A DNA stretch of 64,000 nt from Xylographa opegraphella. Its lineage: Eukaryota. The notes beneath the pieces were generated by a model. It was not told the origin of the DNA. It worked only from the letters and a program-made list of their open reading frames with translations, and did not search any database. Location of the stretch: positions 62,001 through 126,000 of the forward strand of contig JALDZX010000058.1 in the NCBI GenBank assembly GCA_022813865.1, given 5' to 3'. Positions 16,047 through 64,000 of this stretch are shown here, piece by piece. A program made the translations under genes and the position numbers. Within the stretch, counting starts at the first letter, position 1. Every line of letters starts with the position of its first letter.

Positions 16047-17207
16047 CCCCACATAAATTATGCACCATATGAATGAATTGCTCTAAGCTTCTTTAGATCA
16101 AATATCAGCACGCGAATATCCGGTGCACCAAAGCTGTGACGAGTAAGAGGCCAGCGTGTGGGCTAGGCAGATATATGTATTACGTGGAAAAGCGATGGTT
16201 TTGCTCGGGCAACGGTGCAAGCGAACACTTGTTTCGTGTCACAGCCATTTTGACCTCGATTTGACAGGGTGAGCTTAGATTCATGACGGTCAGCCATCGC
16301 ATGCAGTATATCTTACTCGATCGACCGTGTCGATGTATAACACAATGATGAAATCAGATTTTCCGACTGTGGGGAGTACCTAGAATGGAGTCGAAGATCA
16401 CAATTTCTGATACATGATTCCTGTGTCCAATCATGGTATTTTGTAGATAGGCGGTCAGCAGTCAAGAATGTTTGGCTAAAATTGCATGTGTTGCCGCCTG
16501 TCTTTGGATGGAATAGGTCTGTCCCTTGAACAATATATCCGGATCAATACGGCCCAGCTCCCCTGGTATTCCTTATACAATCGTCGTGAAGAGCAAGGTG
16601 CGTATCGAGACATCGGGATCATCCCTCATTGTAGATCAGCCCAGGCATGCTTTCATATCTACCAAGTCTCCATGTCTTTTGTCACTGGCTGGGCGGGTAG
16701 GGCCGGGGATGGGGGGGCCGCGGATGTGTATATGGCGCGAGGGAAGGGGAAAGGTGAGCGGGGGGGTCGTACAGCTGAACCATTACGTTTAACGGGGATG
16801 GATGGAGTACACAGGATTTTCGCTAACGGAGGCAATCGCAGCGCTTCGGAGGGAGGATCATAGATGTAGATAGATAGATATCAAGCTCGTGAGGTATTCC
16901 ACGAAAACAGAGACGCGGTCTAGCATAGCGACTATCTCGCCGTGTAATAAAATACCCCTTTGGCGGATCGGCACCCAATCCTCGTGACGATGTATCCGCG
17001 AACGCGTGAAGTATGTTCCAATAGACCCTATACATACCTGATTCCCACACAGAGTACACATACACACATACACGCATACGCAACCCATTCCATCCATCCA
17101 GCCCAAGGCCCCGCAGAACCCCTCGACTCCCCCGTTCTCTAAGAATCTTCCTCCGTAACTCATACCATTATATATACCACTCCCCCACCACCGTCCCACA
17201 CCACCAA

Positions 17208-19324
17208 TCAATCCCCCCACCCCATCCCACCCTCCGCCTTCGCCTCACTCTTATCTTCATACCTCCCCCTCAACGCATCCACCTCCTGCTGCAAGCGCGA
17301 CAAGTCCGCCAGAACATCCGCACTCCCCCCCGCTGCCGCCTTCGAGATCACATCCGCACTGCTCTGCAACGCCGTCCCATCCTTCGAACCCGCCACCGGC
17401 ACCGCAGCCGCAACCGCAGCGGGCGCATGCTCATCCGCTCTGGGGACAGCGTCTGCACCTTTGGGCCTCGCCCCCTCGGCGACGGGAGCAATCTCGCTGC
17501 TAGGCCGTCGCAGGCTGTAGCCGCTGGCGGACGAGCCGCGGCGGCGAGGGGGCGGTGGTGGCGGGGCCATGGCTGCGGAGGAGGAGGAAGGGGAGGGGCG
17601 GTCTGCGGCGAGGGGGCGTTTGGAGATGGAGGGTGTGCGGGCGGGGGGGACTGGGGGACGGGGTTTCTCGGTTGTGGGGCTCGGTTTGAGGGGTGTGGAG
17701 GGCAGTTCGGGAAGGTTGGGCGGGTCGAGGGTGAGGGAGTTGCGGTCGGTGTTGCGGCGGCGGGGCGGTGGAGGGGCTGGGGGCTTGGTGGGTGGGGTGG
17801 CCTGCGAGGTGGGGAGGGGGGAGAGGTTTTCTTCTAGGATGGGGGCGGAGCGGCCGGTGGGAGCACCTGGTTGCTTCGAGCGGAGCTGGCTGTGGCGGCG
17901 GGCGAGAGGTGGGGTGGGGGCAACGCGAGCTCGGGAAGCGGACTCGCGGGTACTGGGTGCGTGGGTTTTCTTGTCTTTGAGAGAGAGGCCCAGAAGGCTG
18001 GCGCCGGTTTCGGAAATGATAGATGCGGGAGGGGCTGGGAGCGGTTTGTTCAAGTCGGTAGACTTGGATGTCTTGGGAGATATCGAGGCCGGCTGCTGAG
18101 TGGAAGTTGCCGGCATCTCTGCCGGGAGTTCAACGGGCGATTTTAGTATTGCAGGATTCCTGGCGTATGGGCTCGATTGTGTTTTACTTGCAGAGATGTT
18201 ATATTGCCTGGGCGAGTTCGGGGTGTCTGGCATGGAGGAGAACTTCCCAGTTGACCTTTGCAGAGAAATCTGCAGCTCTTCAGCTTCCGGCGAGCTTTCG
18301 TGAGATGTTCGCGGTGTCTCAAAGTGAGATCCGGTCTGAGATTCCAAGATAGACTGTCTCGATAAAGATGAAGTATCGGTATTACTACTGCTGTCACCGA
18401 GAATGCCCTGCAATGGCAGGATAGAAGGAGTGCTGGCCGAGGAGTCAGCATCGCCGGTCATTAGAAGTCTTGTAAATACATCCACGCCTAGTGGTGCCCT
18501 CATGCTGAGCGTGGAGGAGTTTCGAGATGGCCCCGGGCGCCCTTCTCCATCCTCATCAAATGAATTCGAATCTCGCCGAGGCATATTCTTCTGGAAAGGG
18601 TTTGATGGAATCCCTAGGGTTCTTTGTGCTTTCGGCGGCACCGATTGAGTTGTCGGTGGCGATGCTGTTTGCTGCCTGAAATTATCTTCGTCATGGCTGT
18701 CCCTTCGCGAAATACCAAGTGTTTTTTGCGCCTTGGCAGGTACTGTTCGTACGTGCTCATGTAAAGTTCTGTCACCCGCCGTGTTCCTATTGGGTAGGTT
18801 TCCGATAAGTGTCGAAGTCCTCCATGGGTTATCGGAATCGACCCCCAGTGTCACTCGTGCTTTGTTAGGTACTGATCTAACTGTCTTTCGTACAGGCGAA
18901 GGCAATTCTTCGTCTTCCTCGTTCATATCCTCAGTATCTGAAGCTGCCTGGAATGGATCCTCCAGGGGTGTATCCTCGAAAGGAGCAGTGCTTCTTCGCC
19001 CTGACCGTGGAGATTCATTTCTGCTTTCCCAGGAGGTCGGCGAGGAAGGAAATTCTCTTTGGCTACCGTCGTCACTTTCCGAACCAAGCTTGGAGGAATG
19101 TGGTGAAACGATGCGGACGTGCTTTGTGATCGGTTTGATGTTGATTTGGACGCCTTCTGTTATCTGGTCAGGAAAGGTGAATGAACTGCAGCAGAGTGAT
19201 AGGCACCAGTATCTAAAGCGGGAAAGCGAACCCCCGTCTTCGCTATCTCATCCTCCCCAGGGCCAAAGGTATCCTGACCATGTGGATTCTGCTGCTTACG
19301 GCGGAAAGGGTTGGAGCCAGACAT
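17208..19324 (-). CDS. Hypothetical Pro/Ser-rich protein with short C-terminal coiled coil
   Basis: MSGSNPFRRK start, one intron after RFPALDT, long ORF with PPPPPPRRR motifs, ends DVLADLSRLQQEVDALR. Confidence 0.75.
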
Positions 19325-29061: not shown

Positions 29062-29449
29062 TGTTGGAAATAGCGTTGCCTGGCAGAATCCCCTCTATAT
29101 TGCCTGCAGGCAATATAGACGCTAACCTGCTTCTAGACTAGCGTAGCCGTATATAAGGGAGCTTTCTTCCTTAAGAAGAAAGTAACCTTCTTACGCATCT
29201 TGACAGATAGTTCAATGAAGCACTTGTGACGGCTATGACATCAGTCACAGGTGATAGGGGTCGGGCTGGATCAGGACTAGCACCTTTAGTATATAGCCTC
29301 GCCCATGGAGTAGCCTCACCGCTTCTCCATCTTAATCTGGGTTGAAATCGTCCACCTAAAGCTTACGTTCTAGGCGTGCTTGCGTGGTGAGTTGATGAGC
29401 CATAACAGCACTGGTTCCACCATACTGATTCCACCCATTCATTTCAACT
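29062..29449. mobile_element. Solo LTR (TGTTGG..., about 200 bp net) interrupted by a second solo LTR
   Basis: Termini TGTTGGAAAT / ATTTCAAC(T); 5-bp TSD AATGC at 29057-29061 and 29450-29454; internal TATATAA. Confidence 0.75.
29225..29407. mobile_element. 183-bp solo LTR, copy 1
   Basis: TGTGACGGCT...AGCCATAACA termini; 5-bp TSD GCACT on both sides; near-identical copy at 63669-63851. Confidence 0.92.
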
Positions 29450-29557
29450 AATGCCCTTATATAATCTGCTATAGCCTGTTATTATTTTTATATAATTTAT
29501 TATAGTTTGCTATTGCCCCTAAACAGTTTATTATAGTACGTTGTAATTTACTATTAC

Positions 29558-29619
29558 TGTTACGGCTCGCTATCTCACCAGAAAAGCAGGCCTAGAACCA
29601 CAGCTATAGGTGAGCGATT
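29558..29619. mobile_element. Diverged relative of the 183-bp LTR in opposite orientation, truncated by the gap
   Basis: TGTTACGGCTC..CTCACCA..AAGCAGGCCTAGAAC..AGCTATAGGTG aligns with the reverse complement of the 183-bp LTR end. Confidence 0.65.
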
Positions 29620-29669
29620 NNNNNNNNNNNNNNNNNNNNNNNNNNNNNNNNNNNNNNNNNNNNNNNNNN
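29620..29669. other. Assembly gap (50 N)
   Basis: Run of N. Confidence 1.
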
Positions 29670-29728
29670 CGTCCACCTAAAGCTTACGTTCTAGGCGTGC
29701 TTGCGTGGTGAGTTGATGAGCCATAACA
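29670..29728. mobile_element. Partial third copy of the 183-bp LTR (3' end as written)
   Basis: Identical to 29349-29407 (cgtccacctaaagc...gagccataaca). Confidence 0.85.
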
Positions 29729-56147: not shown

Positions 56148-57097
56148 TCAGCGCAAGGATGCTTGCAAACTCTCCAGCACCTATGGACACAATCAGTAAA
56201 TTTCAGCGCTCAACCACCAAGCATACTAGTCTTACCTCAAGCTCGATTTTCGCTTCTGCAACGTCTTGCTCACTGCCGCTTCCACCTGCTATCTTCTGGG
56301 CCTCACTAATCTGAGAACGAACAGCCTGAAAAAAATCAAAATCTTTATAACTCATCTTGTACTGTTTCGGTTCTTGCATACCTCCGCGCTAAAATCTTCC
56401 AGAGGAAAGCCCTCCACGGCGTTGATGCTGAGTTGCGAGTTTGGCTGGACAATAGCAAATCCTCCGGACACTGGGATCGGTGGATATCAGCATTGCCTAT
56501 TTGATTCCTGATAATAGATTCCAATCGTTGCCCGAGCAGATTATCATTGGCAATGATAATGCCAGTTAAGCCAACTTACAAAAGAATTGTTTGCTTCCAC
56601 CACTCTCTTCAATGATCTCCACCAGACCGGGCTTTAATTGCTCAATTGATGGAACATGATTCGCAAGGACACCCATCTCCCCAGATTCCGCGGGGATATT
56701 GACTTGCACGCTGGGTGTACAGTTCGTCAGCTTGGCGCTTAGGAGGCACATACAGTAGCTGGCTATCTTAGCTCATGAACATACACATCAGTAGATTTGT
56801 AGATAGACTAAACGATGATATCCGATCAGTAAGCCTAAGTATACATGACCAATTGATTTTTATGTAGGCATGACCAATTGATTTTTATGTAGGCATGACC
56901 AATTGATTTTTATGTAGGGAAATAGTCACTGACAATAGATGAAAACGTCGAGGATGACTTACCTGATGGGGAAGTGCCAGTGTCAATTTGATCTTATCAG
57001 ATACTGCTTCAGCATATCCTCGTCGCTGTAGCGACGTTCTGATTGCTGACTGATAAGTGCGAGAAGCCGTACGGACCATACGTAAGGCGTTCATCAT
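56148..57097 (-). CDS. ATP16: Mitochondrial ATP synthase delta subunit, 6 exons
   Basis: Presequence..RRGYAEAVSDKIKLTLALPHQ|SIYKSTDV|VQVNIPAESGEMGVLANHVPSIEQLKPG..SGGFA..AEAKIELE|VLESLQASLR*. Confidence 0.96.
56844..56918. repeat. Three exact 25-bp tandem repeats in ATP16 intron 1
   Basis: catgaccaattgatttttatgtagg x3. Confidence 0.95.
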
Positions 57098-57608: not shown

Positions 57609-57857
57609 TGATAAGGTTCTGACCAATGTTGTGTGAAACAAGGGTCGGTGAAACCTTATTCTGGTTGCCTCCTTTGTCTTAATGGCCTCCCTTGGGAGGC
57701 ATGGGAGGCATTTTAGAACAGGATTTTTATATAAAGTGGAGAATTTCCTTTATTGTAAAAGGCGTGTTCAATTTATATTATGATTTTAAATTAATAGGCT
57801 TTAATACAATATTGTACGAAAATTATTACTCTTGAAAAACAATCAGTTTACCATTAT
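57609..57857 (+). repeat. 5' LTR of the chromovirus (3' end approximate)
   Basis: Aligns with 63597-64000 after removing the solo-LTR insertion; less mutated than the 3' copy. Confidence 0.75.
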
Positions 57858-60800
57858 ATATTTTTATTTATTTATTAACGAATTCAATTTAAATTATTAA
57901 TCGAATTATATTAATAAAAATTAAAATCGTAACACTTTAAACATTTTTAAAACAAATGTATCAGGAGTACGACCAAACTCAATTTCAAGCGTCGCAAAAA
58001 ATAATAAATAAATACTATAAAAATTAATCGTATCAAGGTAAAAAAACCCGATAAATATAAAGAAAATAGAAATCACCTAAAGAACTGATTTATACAAATA
58101 AATACATTTTTCGAGTTTTAAAGTAATGGTGTTTTAAAATTAAAAAAATCACTTTTCGTTATTATATATATATACGAGAACAAGCTTAGAAATAGATCGC
58201 TTTTTATTTTAAAAAATATCTCGAGGATTTTAACGACAAAAACTTTAAGTAGTTAAAAAACTTTGCGACATTTAAAATCGAAATCAAAAGAATTTTCGAA
58301 TTATTAAATAAAAAAATAGCAATACGAATCATATAGCATTTTAGATAAATTTTTATTATATAAAATACTCGACTCGATTTTAACAGTTTGCGACTCAAAT
58401 TAAATAAAACAACGGCGTTTTAATAATAATATACCGCAAGGGATTTAAAGACTCGATAAAAAATAAATGAATAGAAACTAATGCCGTAATCGAAAGTATA
58501 AATCAAATAATCGAGATATACATAAAAATTAATAATAAACTGTACGAAAAAGTTATAAAACGTAAACACGAAATTAAAAATACAACAAAAATTAATTATT
58601 AAAAAACGATTTTAAAGCAAAAAAAATAATATAAAACGCCAAACTTTTATCGACCAATACCAATAAAAATAAATATATTTTAAAAGTAAAAGCAGGGATT
58701 TGAAAAACAGCACTCACAAGGAAAAAAACAAAGATTATCTATTACGTATATAAATAAATCGGCCACATTACTAAAATTATCGATCAAAGAACAAAATACT
58801 TAAATTATAAATAAATATATATTTAAAATATTCGATAAAGTCGAAATTTAAAAAAAATAACCGGCTATTTTGATACAAGGAAAAGAATACAAAATTTACC
58901 TTAATTTTAAACAATCAGGTCAGTATCAGCAAAAAACACGAAAAAGTTTAAAAAACCAATATTTAGCACAGAAAAAACAGCCCTTAAATAAAAATTAATG
59001 ATAACGAAAAAAGCAATTTAAATATTAATAATTTACAAATCGAGGAAGATTTTGAGAAACAGAATATTGAGCTAAACAATCTCGAAAATTAAATTTATAA
59101 AAAAATTAACAAGTTAATAACCGATAAAAACTAAAAAAATAAATATATAAAAACATCGAGTAAATTCGAAATATTTATATTATAATCGAATATGTCATAA
59201 TATTTATACAAACACGTACTGCAAGGTTTATTAAAAAGATTATGATTACAATAATTATATAAGAAGAATTTATTGTAGTATTTAAATTTAAAATAAATAC
59301 TTTAAAAATAAATGCCCGTGACACTTTCGAGAAAAACGAAAATATTTATACTTTTTAAAATATATATAAGAATTTTGCAATAATTTTATTGTATACGAAA
59401 CTCGCTTAAAAAACGACTACGGATATTCGTTATAGCAATAGTATTTTTATAAAGAATATATAATATATATAAAAATTAAAGAAATCCACGGCTACCTCGA
59501 ACAGAAATTTTTTTTATATGTTATAGGAAAATATATAAAAATTAATATACTATACTTTAAAATATACTAAAAAAATCAGACTGTATAAATTTTATAAAGA
59601 TTTTAATTAAAATAACCGATCACCGAACAACCGTATTATTAAATATTAAAATTAATTCGAATTATATATTTAGCACTTTCGCGAAAAGCTGCGATTTCAA
59701 GTTTTTAATTTTAAAATAAATTTAAATAATAATGGCCGACGAATTATTAAGAAAAAAAGAAAAACGATATGCAAAATCACTTTTTATTGCGATTCATTAA
59801 TATTATAAATAAATAATTTTTAATATAATTATTATGGTAAAATATTATATTATTCTAGGTTTATTTTAATAAATTAAGCACAACGTGTTTTTAAACTGGG
59901 ACAGAAAAGTATTTATTAAAAAGTATATCAACTGCGTTATTAATATATATTTTATACATCGACAGAGAACGGTAGTAAATAAAGAAAAGAATCGAAAATC
60001 GATCAAGATTATAAAATTTTTATTTTTAAATAAAATTGATCTTACTCGAGGATTCGACTCGATACGCATTAATAAAAGTTAGCAGAACAAAATAAGTTAA
60101 AATTTAAAAAAAACCAATGCACCTTTTAATATTCCTAAAAAGCATAAAGTATAAACATGGTTTTTTTATGGAAAAAAAGGGCTTAATACTTTATTTAAAT
60201 ACCAACCTTGAAACTGTAAAATCAACTTCGAATCAGGGAAAAAACTAACATTTAAATCTATATACGATATGTTAAAGAAAGAACTTCAAGAGTTTCGTAA
60301 ATATATTAATAAAAATTTAAAAAAAGGATTTATACGTAAATCAAAATTTTCGACAGAATATTTCGTAATATTAATACCTAAAAAAACGAAAGTTTGAGAC
60401 CTTGTATTTATTATCGAAAGTTGAACGATGTTATTATTAAAAATCGATATTCTTTACCGAAAATTAACGAGATACGGGACAGATTTAGCAAAATAATATT
60501 TTTATTAAATTTAACCTTAAAGGCGTATACAATTTAATTAGAATAAAAAAAGACGAAAAATGAAAAACTGCATTTCGAAATAAGTATAAATACTACGAGT
60601 ATCAAATAATGCCCTTTAAATTAATTAATATATTAACTACTTATTAAGTATTAATTAATAATATATTAAAAACACACTTGAATTTAACGATAATAGTCTA
60701 TTTAAACGATGTATTTATTTACTCAAAATTAATAAAGAAATATATAAAGTATGTATTAAAAATATTTATACATCTAGGAAAAACAAGATTGCTTTTTAAA

Positions 60801-62130
60801 TTAAAAAAATATAAATTCCGTAAAAATGAAGTAATTTTTCTAGAATTTATAATTAGTAAAAACGGAATTAAAATAAACTCGAAAAAATACGAATTATACT
60901 CGAATAGTTTTAATTAATAACAGTAAAAAAAATTCTAAAATTTGCAAACTTTAATAAAACTTTTATTAAAAAATTACTTAAAAAAGGCGATACCTTTAAC
61001 GAATTTGGTATATAAAAATGTAAACATTAAATAGAATTCGAATCAACAACGAGCCTTTAATATTTTTAAAAAAAATTGTACAAAACTACCAGTTTTAATA
61101 ATATTCCAGGTAAAAAAATTTAGAAAAATCAAAATAAACGTATTAAACTTAGCCGTAAAAGCATGTCTGCTATAAATATAAATTAAAAAAATGACACCTT
61201 ATTGCATATTATTTAAAAATAATATTACAAGCAGTGTAAAACTATAATATTTACGACAAGGAATTACTCGTTATAATAGTATTTATTTAAAACTGAAGAG
61301 TATATATAGAAAATTGCTTAAAACTTATTATTTATATAAATTACAAAAATATATTAAGCTTTACGACAATAAAAGTATTTAATAAAAGATAAGTAAAATA
61401 GACAGAACTTTTAAAATTGTATAAATTTAAAATTGTATATATATCAGGCAAAGATAATAAAAGAGCAGATATATTTAGTAGAAAAAAAACCTTATAAATA
61501 AAGAACTAATAAACGAAGTATTGCTGAAATAAAATAACAATAAAGCTTTTATTTTTATAAAATAAATCGTAGCTTTCGAACTAAAAACGATTACAAAAAA
61601 TCTAACAGAACTGTTAACAGAAGAAATAATTAAATATTATTACGATGAATTAACGAATGGCCACCCAGAAATTATTAAAATAATAAAATTCATAAGAAAA
61701 AACTATAAATTTTCGAATATAAAAAAGCATGTAAAGGAATATATCAAAAAATATATATTGTGTCAAAAAAATAAATCAACAAGATATACAGTATATAAAA
61801 ATTTTCAATTTTCAAACGTTTTAGAAAAATTATGGGAACAAATCTTAATTGACTTTATTATTAAATAATTGAAATTAAAAGATTTAACTACAGAATTAAA
61901 GTACGATCCGATAATGATATTTATAAATAAATTTATTAAATACTCCATTATCGTATCTTTTAAAAAAACATTTAAAGCGGAACAACTAGCTTTTCTTTTA
62001 TTAAATAAATTAATAAAAATTCATAGGTTTTCAGCAGGAATAATATTTAATAAAAACAAACTATTTATATCGATTTCTGGAAAACTTTAATGTTTGAACT
62101 AGAAGTTAAATTAAAAATATTGATCGTTTA

Positions 62131-62321
62131 TGTTAATTGGTAGAAGCATCACTTGCTGGTAGGCATAAAGGAATACCTGAAGGCTAGTTATATTTATGTA
62201 TAGCGTAGTTCAGTACTAGCGTAGGAGGTATATGTCACGTTCTCGTGGCCTATACCGAACTTCACCGAATATACGATTACTGTTGCCCCCGCCCTGATCC
62301 AAATACACGTGCCTTTTAATA
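62131..62321. mobile_element. 191-bp solo LTR inserted in the gypsy integrase
   Basis: TGTTAA...TTAATA termini; TSD GTTTA/ATTTA; removing it restores a degraded STAYHPQTDGQTE-type integrase motif; higher GC than flanks. Confidence 0.75.
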
Positions 62322-63099
62322 ATTTATTATTTATAAACAGATAATCAAACGAAAGGAATAAATTAAAGTTTGAAAGTGTATTTACGATACTTTATTAATT
62401 TCAAATAAAATAATGGAATATTATTATTGCCTTTGGGGCAATTAGCACTAAACGACAAACAATTTACAATAACGAAAATATCGCTTTTTTCGCAAATACA
62501 GAACGATATTCGAAATTTTTTAAAAATAAAAAATTTAAACCTAATACTAATAAGATAATAACATTAATCAATGAATTAAAGAATACGCACGAAGCGTTAT
62601 TAAAAAATCGAATAAAATAACGATAAAAAGCTGCTGTAAAATATAAAAATACGACAAATAAACCTTAGCTAAAGAAAGGGAATAAAATATTTTTTAACAA
62701 ATAATTTAATAATTAATAAAAATCGAAGCAAAAAACTCGATTATATCAAGGTCGGATTATTTTTAATCAAGCAAGTCAAAGAATTAATCAACTACCTTCT
62801 CAATCTGCTAAAAAAAATGCGAGAGTACACTCAGTGTTTTATATTTTATTATTAAAATTAGCAGACATAAGTATTTTATTATAAAAAACCTTTCGTTACA
62901 ACAAAAAAACATAGGAATTCGAAGTAAAAAGAATCCTGGACAAGCAAAATCAGAACTATTTGGTCAAGTAAAAGGGATACCCAGAATTAAATAATACTTG
63001 GGAACCACTTACTAACCTTGGGAACTGCCAGGAATTTCTTTAATAATATTACCAAGTAAAGTCAAAATCTCAAAAAAAGAAACTTTCAAAGTCCCAGAA

Positions 63100-63540
63100 A
63101 AAAAAAGGGAGAAAAAGTTTGAAAAAAATCGTTGGTAAAATTTTTCGCCTCTCAAAGTTTATTGTTTTTTAGGGCTTCGATGTTAAATATTTTACGCTAA
63201 AATATTTCCCGTTCCTCATTTTTATTATTTAAAAATCGACGCTTTTTACGGCTTAAAGCTTGTAAAACCTGATTTAAAGTTTATTTTAATTTCACTATTC
63301 GACGTTTTATTTTATTTTTTGTTTTTTTAAATCACGACGATCAACCTTTATAATAATCAAAAAATAACGAGTTTTGACCGCAATATGGTTTACGCAAAAC
63401 TTCGACTCCGAAGAGATCGTATAAATTAAATACTTTTTAATACAGCGAACACAAAAATGCATCGTGAACTTTCCTTTATCACGAATACTGTACGATTAAA
63501 CCTTTCGGCGATAAACGCTTGTTAATTTATATTTTGGCAT
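63100..63540 (-). pseudogene. RIP-degraded antisense accessory ORF of the retrotransposon (Zn-cluster-like plus coiled coil)
   Basis: ATG 63540: MPKYKLTSVYRRKV*SYSIRDKGKFTMHFCVRCIKKYLIYTISSESKFCVNHIAVKTRYFL..., then a helical segment ..EEREIF*RKIFNIEALK; 3' end approximate. Confidence 0.6.
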
Positions 63541-63596
63541 AATATAAAAAAACTGCTGGAATTCTTTCGGAGTAAAAATCTGGCGGAAAAAGTTGG

Positions 63597-64000
63597 TAAT
63601 AAAATTCTGACCAATGTTGTATAAAACAAGGATTGGTAAAATTTTATTTCAATTGCCTTCTTTGCCTCTGTGACGGCTATGACATCAGTCACAGGTAATA
63701 GGGGTCGGGCTGGATCAGGACTAGCACCTTTAGTATATANTCTCGCCCATGGAGCAGCCTCACCGCTTCTCCATCTTAATCTAGGTTGAAATCGTCCACC
63801 TAAAGCTTACGTTCTAGGCGTGCTTGTGTGGTGAGTTGATGAGCCGTAACAGCCTCCCTGAGAAAATATAAAAAACATGACCTCTTTATTTTAATGGCCT
63901 CCCTTGGGAGGCATAAAAGGCATTTTAAAATAGAATTTTTATATAAAATAAAGAATTTCCTTTATTGTAAAAAATATGTTCAATTTATGTTATAATTTTA
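63597..64000 (+). repeat. 3' LTR of the chromovirus (interrupted, truncated by window)
   Basis: Matches the 5' LTR with G>A and C>T changes. Confidence 0.85.
63669..63851. mobile_element. 183-bp solo LTR, copy 2, inside the gypsy 3' LTR
   Basis: TSD GCCTC on both sides; differs from copy 1 by 6 transitions plus one N. Confidence 0.92.

Follow-up and report, generated by a model that had tools for sequence, protein, structure and literature searches.

A probable antisense accessory gene with a Zn2Cys6-like cluster and a predicted coiled coil in a degraded fungal chromovirus

The closest described counterpart of the gene considered in this work is brtn, which was reportedly described by Zhao et al. 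in 2011 (Virology 417:248). According to the passages on this gene, brtn is found in Boty-like elements of Botrytis and Sclerotinia, where it lies antisense between pol and the 3′ long terminal repeat (LTR) (PMC8365987, PMC7264820, PMC4227169, PMC5987419), and it is drawn in BcGypsy1 in figure S1 of one of these sources (PMC8365987). In plants, antisense open reading frames (aORFs) located between pol and the 3′ LTR include those of Grande (gene23), RIRE2, Retand (ORF4), and PvRetro13 (ORF2); some of the aORF products are nuclear, and Grande gene23 is transcribed from its own promoter (PMC7264820). The relevant passages of the same source state that the function of aORFs is unknown, propose a regulatory role, describe no clear similarity to other proteins, and mention an antisense promoter in the 3′ LTR of human T-cell leukemia virus (HTLV) (PMC7264820). 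In this work, we describe the relic of such a gene in a Ty3/gypsy chromovirus of the fungus Xylographa opegraphella. The element lies at the right end of a stretch of 64,000 nucleotides (assembly GCA_022813865.1, contig JALDZX010000058.1, positions 62,001 to 126,000; hereafter the window) and has been degraded by repeat-induced point mutation (RIP). The relic lies antisense to gag-pol, in the slot that separates the chromodomain from the 3′ LTR (Table 1).

A minus-strand gene in this slot had been proposed in an earlier interpretation made from the DNA letters alone (hereafter the sequence-only reading). We translated the minus frame from the ATG at 63540 with stops replaced by X (query P0001) and compared it by phmmer with 1.84 billion representative proteins. 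Two proteins were found at E ≤ 0.001, namely, P0011 (E 1.2e-7) and P0012 (E 2e-4). Both are unnamed singletons from ENA in the cluster look-up, and both are complete open reading frames (ORFs), such that the frame is open in relatives of the window copy. P0011 has 177 amino acids (aa), is encoded on a contig of 8706 bp, and has a composition that is not RIP-like; P0012 has 166 aa, a RIP-like composition, and an N-terminus shorter than that of P0011, and its contig measures 361,890 bp. When P0011 was aligned to the window by tblastn, the matches formed three collinear pieces in three minus frames (residues 1-75 at 63540-63316, 80-155 at 63328-63098, and 147-177 at 63098-63021). Met1 of P0011 aligns to the window ATG, and the two stops are at most two codons apart (PGSS followed by the stop in P0011, PGSSQG followed by the stop in the window). 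The identical residues amount to 30 of 75 in piece 1 (BLASTP) and 23 of 76 in piece 2. We also scored a RIP-aware agreement, in which a codon counts if undoing a C-to-T or G-to-A change yields the residue of the relative. In piece 1, 46 of 75 codons agree by this count, compared with a null of 13.4 ± 3.2 (maximum 25) from 2000 shuffles; in piece 2, 44 of 76 agree, compared with 15.6 ± 3.3 (maximum 27), again from 2000 shuffles. The homology seen in the phmmer E-values and in the collinear tblastn pieces decides the case for a gene. Judged from these comparisons, the antisense gene is almost certainly real and was once coding.

The minus frame from the ATG at 63540-63538 reads MPKYKL...MHFCVRCIKKYLIYTISSESKFCVNHIAVKTRY. 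Read through as a single frame, it contains nine stops (seven TAA, one TAG, and one TGA). Because P0011 aligns collinearly over three minus frames, the window copy can be described along the three pieces as having two frameshifts and four internal stops (TAA 63498, TAA 63283, TAG 63199, and TGA 63154). Both frameshifts fall in A/T runs, one in a T/A run at about 63316-63328 and the other in an A run at about 63098-63120, in place of the single A-run frameshift that had been proposed earlier. Two of the earlier coordinates also have to be revised: the distance from the ATG to the start of the 3′ LTR is 53 nt (63541-63593) rather than 57 nt, and the gene does not end at 63100 but continues for about 88 nt to a stop at 63012-63014. 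The suggestion that the stops are TAA and TAG codons derived from CAA and CAG fits codon 15, where the TAA of the window frame faces a Gln in P0011, but does not extend to the one TGA among the nine frame stops. The copy in the window is dead: besides the four stops and the pair of frameshifts, three of its six zinc ligand positions are altered. A read-through of the broken frame and a very large protein search sufficed to recover the gene from DNA that has a GC content of 20-29% after RIP.

At its 3′ end, the relic overlaps the end of the chromodomain coding region tail-to-tail by about 44 nt (63012-63055). In this overlap, the antisense ...EIPG... faces the chromodomain residues N-C-Q-E-F-L, and both are conserved; each strand may constrain the other here.

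The Gal4-type Zn(II)2Cys6 family (PF00172) has the spacing C-x2-C-x6-C-x5-12-C-x2-C-x6-8-C, and P0011 conforms to it with an intact motif, C30-x2-C33-x6-C40-x8-C49-x2-C52-x6-C59. In the window, the corresponding minus-frame motif is C-x2-C-x6-Y-x8-C-x2-H-x6-Y, in which both Tyr codons are TAT; our reading of the sequence agrees with the earlier one on this point. Cysteine is kept at cluster positions 1, 2, and 4, whereas TAT, CAT, and TAT occupy positions 3, 5, and 6. The sequence-only reading had reverted the two TAT codons to TGT and had arrived at a cluster with one His. P0011 has Cys at both of the Tyr positions and also at the His position, such that the logic of RIP reversal from TAT back to TGT gave the right answer. 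P0012 has Tyr at four of the six cluster positions. P0012 and the window copy keep different subsets of the cysteines, and the lost positions hold Tyr in all four cases in P0012 and in two of three in the window (the third being the His). "Zn2Cys6-like" is a fitting wording for this cluster, and P0011 is not a member of the Pfam family Zn_clus.

The cluster is followed by a helix. In the AlphaFold2 model of P0011, which was based on a two-row alignment, residues 65-142 form one long helix with a predicted local distance difference test (pLDDT) score of about 87-95, exceeding 90 over most of its length. The heptad-like helix of the sequence-only reading thus has a modeled counterpart, and the "heptad helix" noted in the second frame is the true continuation of the gene. 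The net charge of P0011 is +5 in residues 1-29, -2 in 30-59, +12 in 60-100, -7 in 101-135, and -6 in 136-177, which places the basic charge outside the cluster, in segments 1-29 and 60-100. The idea that the product dimerises is supported by prediction: a homodimer of residues 24-146 with four Zn scored 0.48, compared with 0.27 for the best of three controls. The dimer runs had at least 75% of contacts in common and a partner pLDDT of at least 77. In calibration, the dimer mark was reached by 21 of 30 solved one-chain pairs and 0 of 23 single chains (among eukaryotes, 17 of 29 and 0 of 30); unlike the calibration, our dimer job carried zinc, and the alignment was left unused. A dimerising coiled coil after the cluster is therefore a predicted feature of this protein. 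The earlier interpretation is supported in its structural core.

Taken together, our preferred explanation, in which we have moderate confidence, is that this stretch is a copy, killed by RIP, of a genuine antisense accessory gene of a fungal Ty3/gypsy chromovirus that probably worked as follows. The intact product is predicted to comprise, in this order, a basic N-terminus, the six-Cys cluster, a strongly basic stretch, a pairing helix of about 75 residues, and an acidic hydrophobic tail. A promoter located in the 3′ LTR or next to it would drive leftward transcription, and the gene would be copied and inherited with the element because it is located between the LTRs. The product may be a dimer that holds zinc, resides in the nucleus, and uses its basic regions to bind nucleic acid or chromatin. 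By analogy with antisense-encoded retroviral factors, such a dimer could modulate the transcription or silencing of the element itself. The narrower reading that it is a specific DNA-binding regulator is tentative, and we give it somewhat less than an even chance.

Several observations weigh against the preferred explanation. The Pfam Zn_clus profile scores only 11.5 bits on P0011 (E 0.33; a partial match over residues 27-44), below the cut-off of 21. Zn_clus has no match on the window frames (E ≤ 10) or on P0012. Gal4-type clusters are basic, especially between Cys2 and Cys3, where residues contact DNA. In P0011, the cluster segment 30-59 is net acidic, and the stretch between Cys2 and Cys3 (IEKGLV) has one Lys. 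The AlphaFold2 pLDDT over the cluster (residues 30-60) is only 50-65 with the two-row alignment. The coiled coil of Gal4 is parallel, whereas the predicted dimer of P0011 is antiparallel (contacts of residue 78 with 110 and of 92 with 96), and its margin over the controls is narrow (+0.21, with 0.20 required). A Foldseek comparison of the P0011 model with PDB gave no match at E ≤ 0.001, and phmmer against PDB sequences found nothing below E 0.1 (best E 0.12, an unrelated protein). Furthermore, just two sequence homologs were found, with a query that is damaged by RIP. In the word-based protein search, P0001 gave seven candidates, none at E ≤ 10, and P0011 gave 181 candidates, among which only P0011 itself was matched.

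Because the cluster is acidic and falls below the family threshold, the main rival is an accessory role other than DNA binding. This explanation keeps a real gene borne by the element but takes the cysteine cluster to be a zinc module with a structural task, whereas the dimeric helix and basic stretch would, for example, bind the RNA, Gag, or integrase of the element, aid the nuclear import of the pre-integration complex, or recruit or block chromatin factors. The antiparallel predicted dimer is in line with such a role, as are the nearest ESM Atlas clusters of P0011, which are Ascomycota "hypothetical proteins" and are leads only. These neighbors are unnamed clusters (62-646 members; proteins of 103-214 aa; scores 0.89-0.95), and none of them carries Zn_clus or any other Pfam family. 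Passages on aORFs likewise give their functions as unknown and suggest roles resembling those of retroviral accessory proteins (PMC7264820). However, the exact six-Cys spacing followed by a linker and a dimerising helix corresponds to the layout of Gal4-type factors, and the acidic hydrophobic tail would, by its composition, resemble an activation region. On balance, we regard a structural module without regulatory DNA binding as somewhat unlikely. The boldest form of the regulator reading is that an ascomycete chromovirus lineage encodes an antisense, miniature Gal4-like factor (zinc cluster, dimerising helix, acidic tail), which is made from a 3′ LTR promoter, binds the LTR, and switches transcription or counters silencing; we hold this to be unlikely. 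If it is true, the gene would be to a fungal retrotransposon what HBZ is to HTLV-1 and would rank as the first regulator of the Zn2Cys6 type carried by a transposon, and brtn of Boty may belong to the same family with its domain make-up unnoticed.

With regard to its distribution, the ESM Atlas leads suggest that the family is larger than the two matches. Searches of JGI metagenome contigs gave 478 pattern matches with alignment A2 and 130 with P0011, and viral contigs gave 75 pattern matches with alignment A2; none of these was confirmed. Within the window, tblastn with P0011 and P0012 was run over the full 64 kb (E up to 1); every match lies in 63012-63540, and no second copy was found.

A further question is whether the gene belongs to the element. 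Other contigs of run X1 cover 63142-63575 at a summed depth of 1003-1663, compared with 793-1821 in the neighboring pol bins; the summed depths should not be taken for copy numbers, and the source sample itself may be X1. Because other contigs cover it at a pol-like depth, the segment is not private to the window copy. With an open frame in a relative, Cys at the reverted positions, and a segment that is not unique, none of the three outcomes that would have refuted the sequence-only reading was observed. Among the best-supported differences, which are those listed in the comparison with X1 contigs, none lies in 63012-63540. The C-termini of P0011 and P0012 are compatible, in the antisense phase of the window, with a chromodomain ending in N-C-Q-E-[FL]-L, a property shared by 24 (P0011) and 12 (P0012) of 20000 random 15-mers of the same composition; shared descent makes this compatibility a weaker sign. 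The Cys-to-Tyr changes of RIP type in P0012 are, as judged indirectly from its sequence, as expected of repeated DNA. Taken together, the gene is very likely element-borne.

The alternative on this point is that one subfamily of the element captured part of a host gene or harbors it as a nested insertion, such that the element family has no need of the gene, and that P0011 and P0012 are host genes or duplicates. One X1 contig (depth 916) seemingly joins 63033 to 63553 and thus skips 519 nt that coincide almost exactly with the gene, with a shorter side of 20 letters, which is a weak hint that a form or subfamily without the gene may exist. The placement of the intact relatives P0011 and P0012 inside chromoviruses is indirect, and the family was small in the searches run. 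These points speak for a captured host gene and count against an element-borne one. However, the gene exactly fills the interval that separates the chromodomain from the polypurine tract, and the X1 coverage of the segment resembles that of neighboring pol. P0012 carries changes that would be expected only in repeated DNA, the C-termini of both relatives fit the antisense chromodomain end in a way that few random peptides do, and P0011 is found on a contig of 8.7 kb. A captured host gene is therefore improbable.

A third possibility is that the plus strand carries the conserved coding sequence, either as an extension at the C-terminus of pol or as ORF3 in the sense direction, and that the minus ORFs are its shadow. 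The plus-strand frame that shares its codon register with piece 1 (63050-63593) contains five stops over 180 codons, fewer than any other of the six frames; so low a count was found in 1.25% of shuffles for a single frame and in 6.9% when the best of six was taken. However, coding on one strand is expected to leave few stops in the register-matched frame of the opposite strand. Moreover, the minus ORF has matching start and stop in the window and P0011 (in P0012, the stop only), it has six Cys at a known zinc spacing followed by a long amphipathic helix, and a plus-frame read-through (P0002) gave no Pfam match. The plus frame over 63050-63593 is thus probably a shadow of minus-strand coding, and we consider the reverse very improbable.

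The last possibility, that there is no gene and the cysteine pattern arose by chance in an AT-rich, RIP-altered spacer, was rejected as scarcely credible on account of the phmmer homology with its start-to-start alignment, the collinear matches spanning all of P0011, and a RIP-aware agreement far beyond that of the shuffles. It could draw on the stop counts, which are ordinary (31-78% of 2000 dinucleotide shuffles had as few or fewer stops per minus frame, and no minus frame stands out), and on the window frames, where the 51-aa ORF and P0001 matched only ZapC_N in Pfam (E 0.039 and 0.12). A purine/pyrimidine codon-class test that was designed to be blind to RIP gave no verdict, since it picked the true pol frame in only three of six control segments and is too weak. 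A relaxed six-position motif, defined post hoc, was found in none of 300 element shuffles and none of 2000 region shuffles.

The carrier of the relic is a RIP-degraded Ty3/gypsy chromovirus that spans the window from 57609 to 64000 and beyond (Table 1). This assignment is based on the LTR pair, the domain order RT_RNaseH, Integrase_H2C2, and Chromo, and the polypurine tract. The GC content is 0.20-0.29 inside the element and about 0.49 in the flanking host genes. The RIP indices TA/AT and (CA+TG)/(AC+GT) are about 1.0 and 0.7 in the element, compared with 0.71 and 1.27 in the host part. The left end was set at 57609 because the similarity of nine X1 contigs stops just upstream of this position. 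The LTRs share direct repeats at 57611-57679 and 63599-63667 (78% identical) and at 57672-57788 and 63884-64000 (85%). The start of the 3′ LTR at 63594 was set by the TG after the polypurine tract together with the 5′ LTR start, and the right end of the 5′ LTR is approximate because the 3′ LTR leaves the window. In the RIP-altered frames of the element, RVT_1 itself had no Pfam match at E ≤ 0.01, and a read-through of pol (P0003) matches Pol proteins that carry PF00078 (best E 3.6e-33). The word-based search with P0003 gave five matches at E ≤ 1e-10 among 7998 scored candidates; with identities of 24-31%, these were too distant and were dropped as close relatives of the element.

Table 1. Coordinates in the window of the antisense relic and of the chromovirus that carries it.
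Feature	Coordinates	Strand	Evidence
Whole antisense accessory-gene relic, about 176 codons	63012..63540	-	phmmer matches P0011 and P0012; three collinear tblastn pieces
Piece 1: start codon, basic N-terminus, and six-position cluster (frame of the sequence-only reading)	63316..63540	-	BLASTP to P0011, pairwise E 1e-18
Piece 2, second minus frame: basic stretch and long helix (predicted coiled-coil part), conserved IFNIEAL	63098..63328	-	tblastn to P0011 80-155 and P0012 57-149
Piece 3, third minus frame: acidic/hydrophobic tail ...KEIPGSSQG, stop TAG 63012-63014	63012..63155	-	47-aa ORF; tblastn to P0011 147-177 and P0012 143-165
Six-Cys cluster relic: TGT, TGT, TAT, TGC, CAT, TAT	63364..63453	-	Codon-by-codon comparison with the six Cys of P0011
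5′ LTR	57609..57800	+	Direct repeats with 3′ LTR; start well defined
RNase H-like domain of reverse transcriptase (pol), stops read as X	61183..61422	+	PF17917 RT_RNaseH, E 1.8e-6, 28.5 bits (cut-off 24.8)
Integrase zinc-binding H2C2 domain of pol	61614..61778	+	PF17921, E 5.4e-12 / 3.3e-11
Chromodomain, end of pol	62927..63055	+	PF00385 Chromo, E 1.5e-10, 41.2 bits (cut-off 25.1)
Polypurine tract ggcggaaaaag	63582-63592	+	Read from the sequence; placement beside the LTR start inferred
3′ LTR, leaves the window, broken by an unrelated short repeat (63669-63853)	63594..64000	+	Direct repeats with 5′ LTR

Short repeats are present in and around the element. One (62117-62315; normal GC, 0.42) sits in the RIP-altered integrase region and resembles a miniature inverted-repeat transposable element (MITE); it is missing from another copy of the element, where 62116 and 62316 are joined in a contig by the letters "TA". 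The summed X1 depth over the 62117-62315 bin is 42,845, and this MITE-like repeat is therefore very abundant. The repeat that breaks the 3′ LTR (63669-63853; normal GC, 0.50) is 96% identical to 29225-29409, which is 34 kb away in the window; partial copies are found at 29557-29728, and its summed X1 depth exceeds 100,000. Evidently, RIP preceded the insertion of this repeat, or the repeat falls short of the length on which RIP acts. In host DNA about 0.7 kb upstream of the element, there are three tandem copies of a 25-nt unit at 56836-56918 (33-nt repeats, 91% identical). Elsewhere in the window, 17001-18000 is an isolated GC-rich kilobase (GC 0.657, compared with about 0.49 in its surroundings).

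An antisense accessory ORF in this slot is known already, and what is new is its readable make-up of a zinc cluster and a coiled coil. The sequence-only reading had placed the gene outside the gag-pol canon, which is true, but a precedent exists in brtn, which occupies the same slot in Boty (PMC7264820, PMC8365987). As far as the passages on brtn go, both are extra genes that lie antisense between pol and the 3′ LTR of a fungal gypsy element with a chromodomain. In contrast to Boty, the host of the window element has about 49% GC in its genes, and RIP is heavy. The relic and brtn are likened by slot and strand, not by sequence, and the passages on brtn make no mention of a cysteine cluster or coiled coil in BRTN (PMC8365987, PMC7264820, PMC4227169, PMC5987419). 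In the literature searched, we found no description of a zinc-cluster gene (Zn2Cys6, zinc finger, or binuclear cluster) in a retrotransposon or chromovirus, and no passage of "LTR Retrotransposons in Fungi" mentions zinc, Zn2, or Boty (PMC3248453). Should brtn prove homologous, our finding would annotate a domain in a known gene and widen its host range; otherwise, fungi have a second antisense accessory gene that is independent of brtn. The plant aORFs share the slot and orientation of the relic, but they belong to plant elements that are mostly not chromoviruses, and no zinc cluster is stated for them in the passages concerned.

Among host proteins, the Gal4-type factors are fungal and resemble P0011 in the cysteine spacing and in the linker and predicted dimerising helix that follow. 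P0011 differs from them in its sub-threshold family score, acidic cluster, antiparallel predicted dimer, small size of 177 aa, and lack of a middle homology region. Among retroviral proteins, HBZ of HTLV-1 is a small nuclear basic leucine-zipper factor whose gene occupies the minus strand next to the 3′ LTR. HBZ is unrelated to the relic in sequence, has no cysteine cluster, and belongs to an animal retrovirus. The readable architecture of the antisense extra gene in the window gives rise to a testable idea, namely, that the element may make its own dimeric nuclear regulator as some retroviruses do. As a working model only, HBZ and the relic would have in common an antisense gene beside the 3′ LTR whose product combines a basic region with a dimerising helix.

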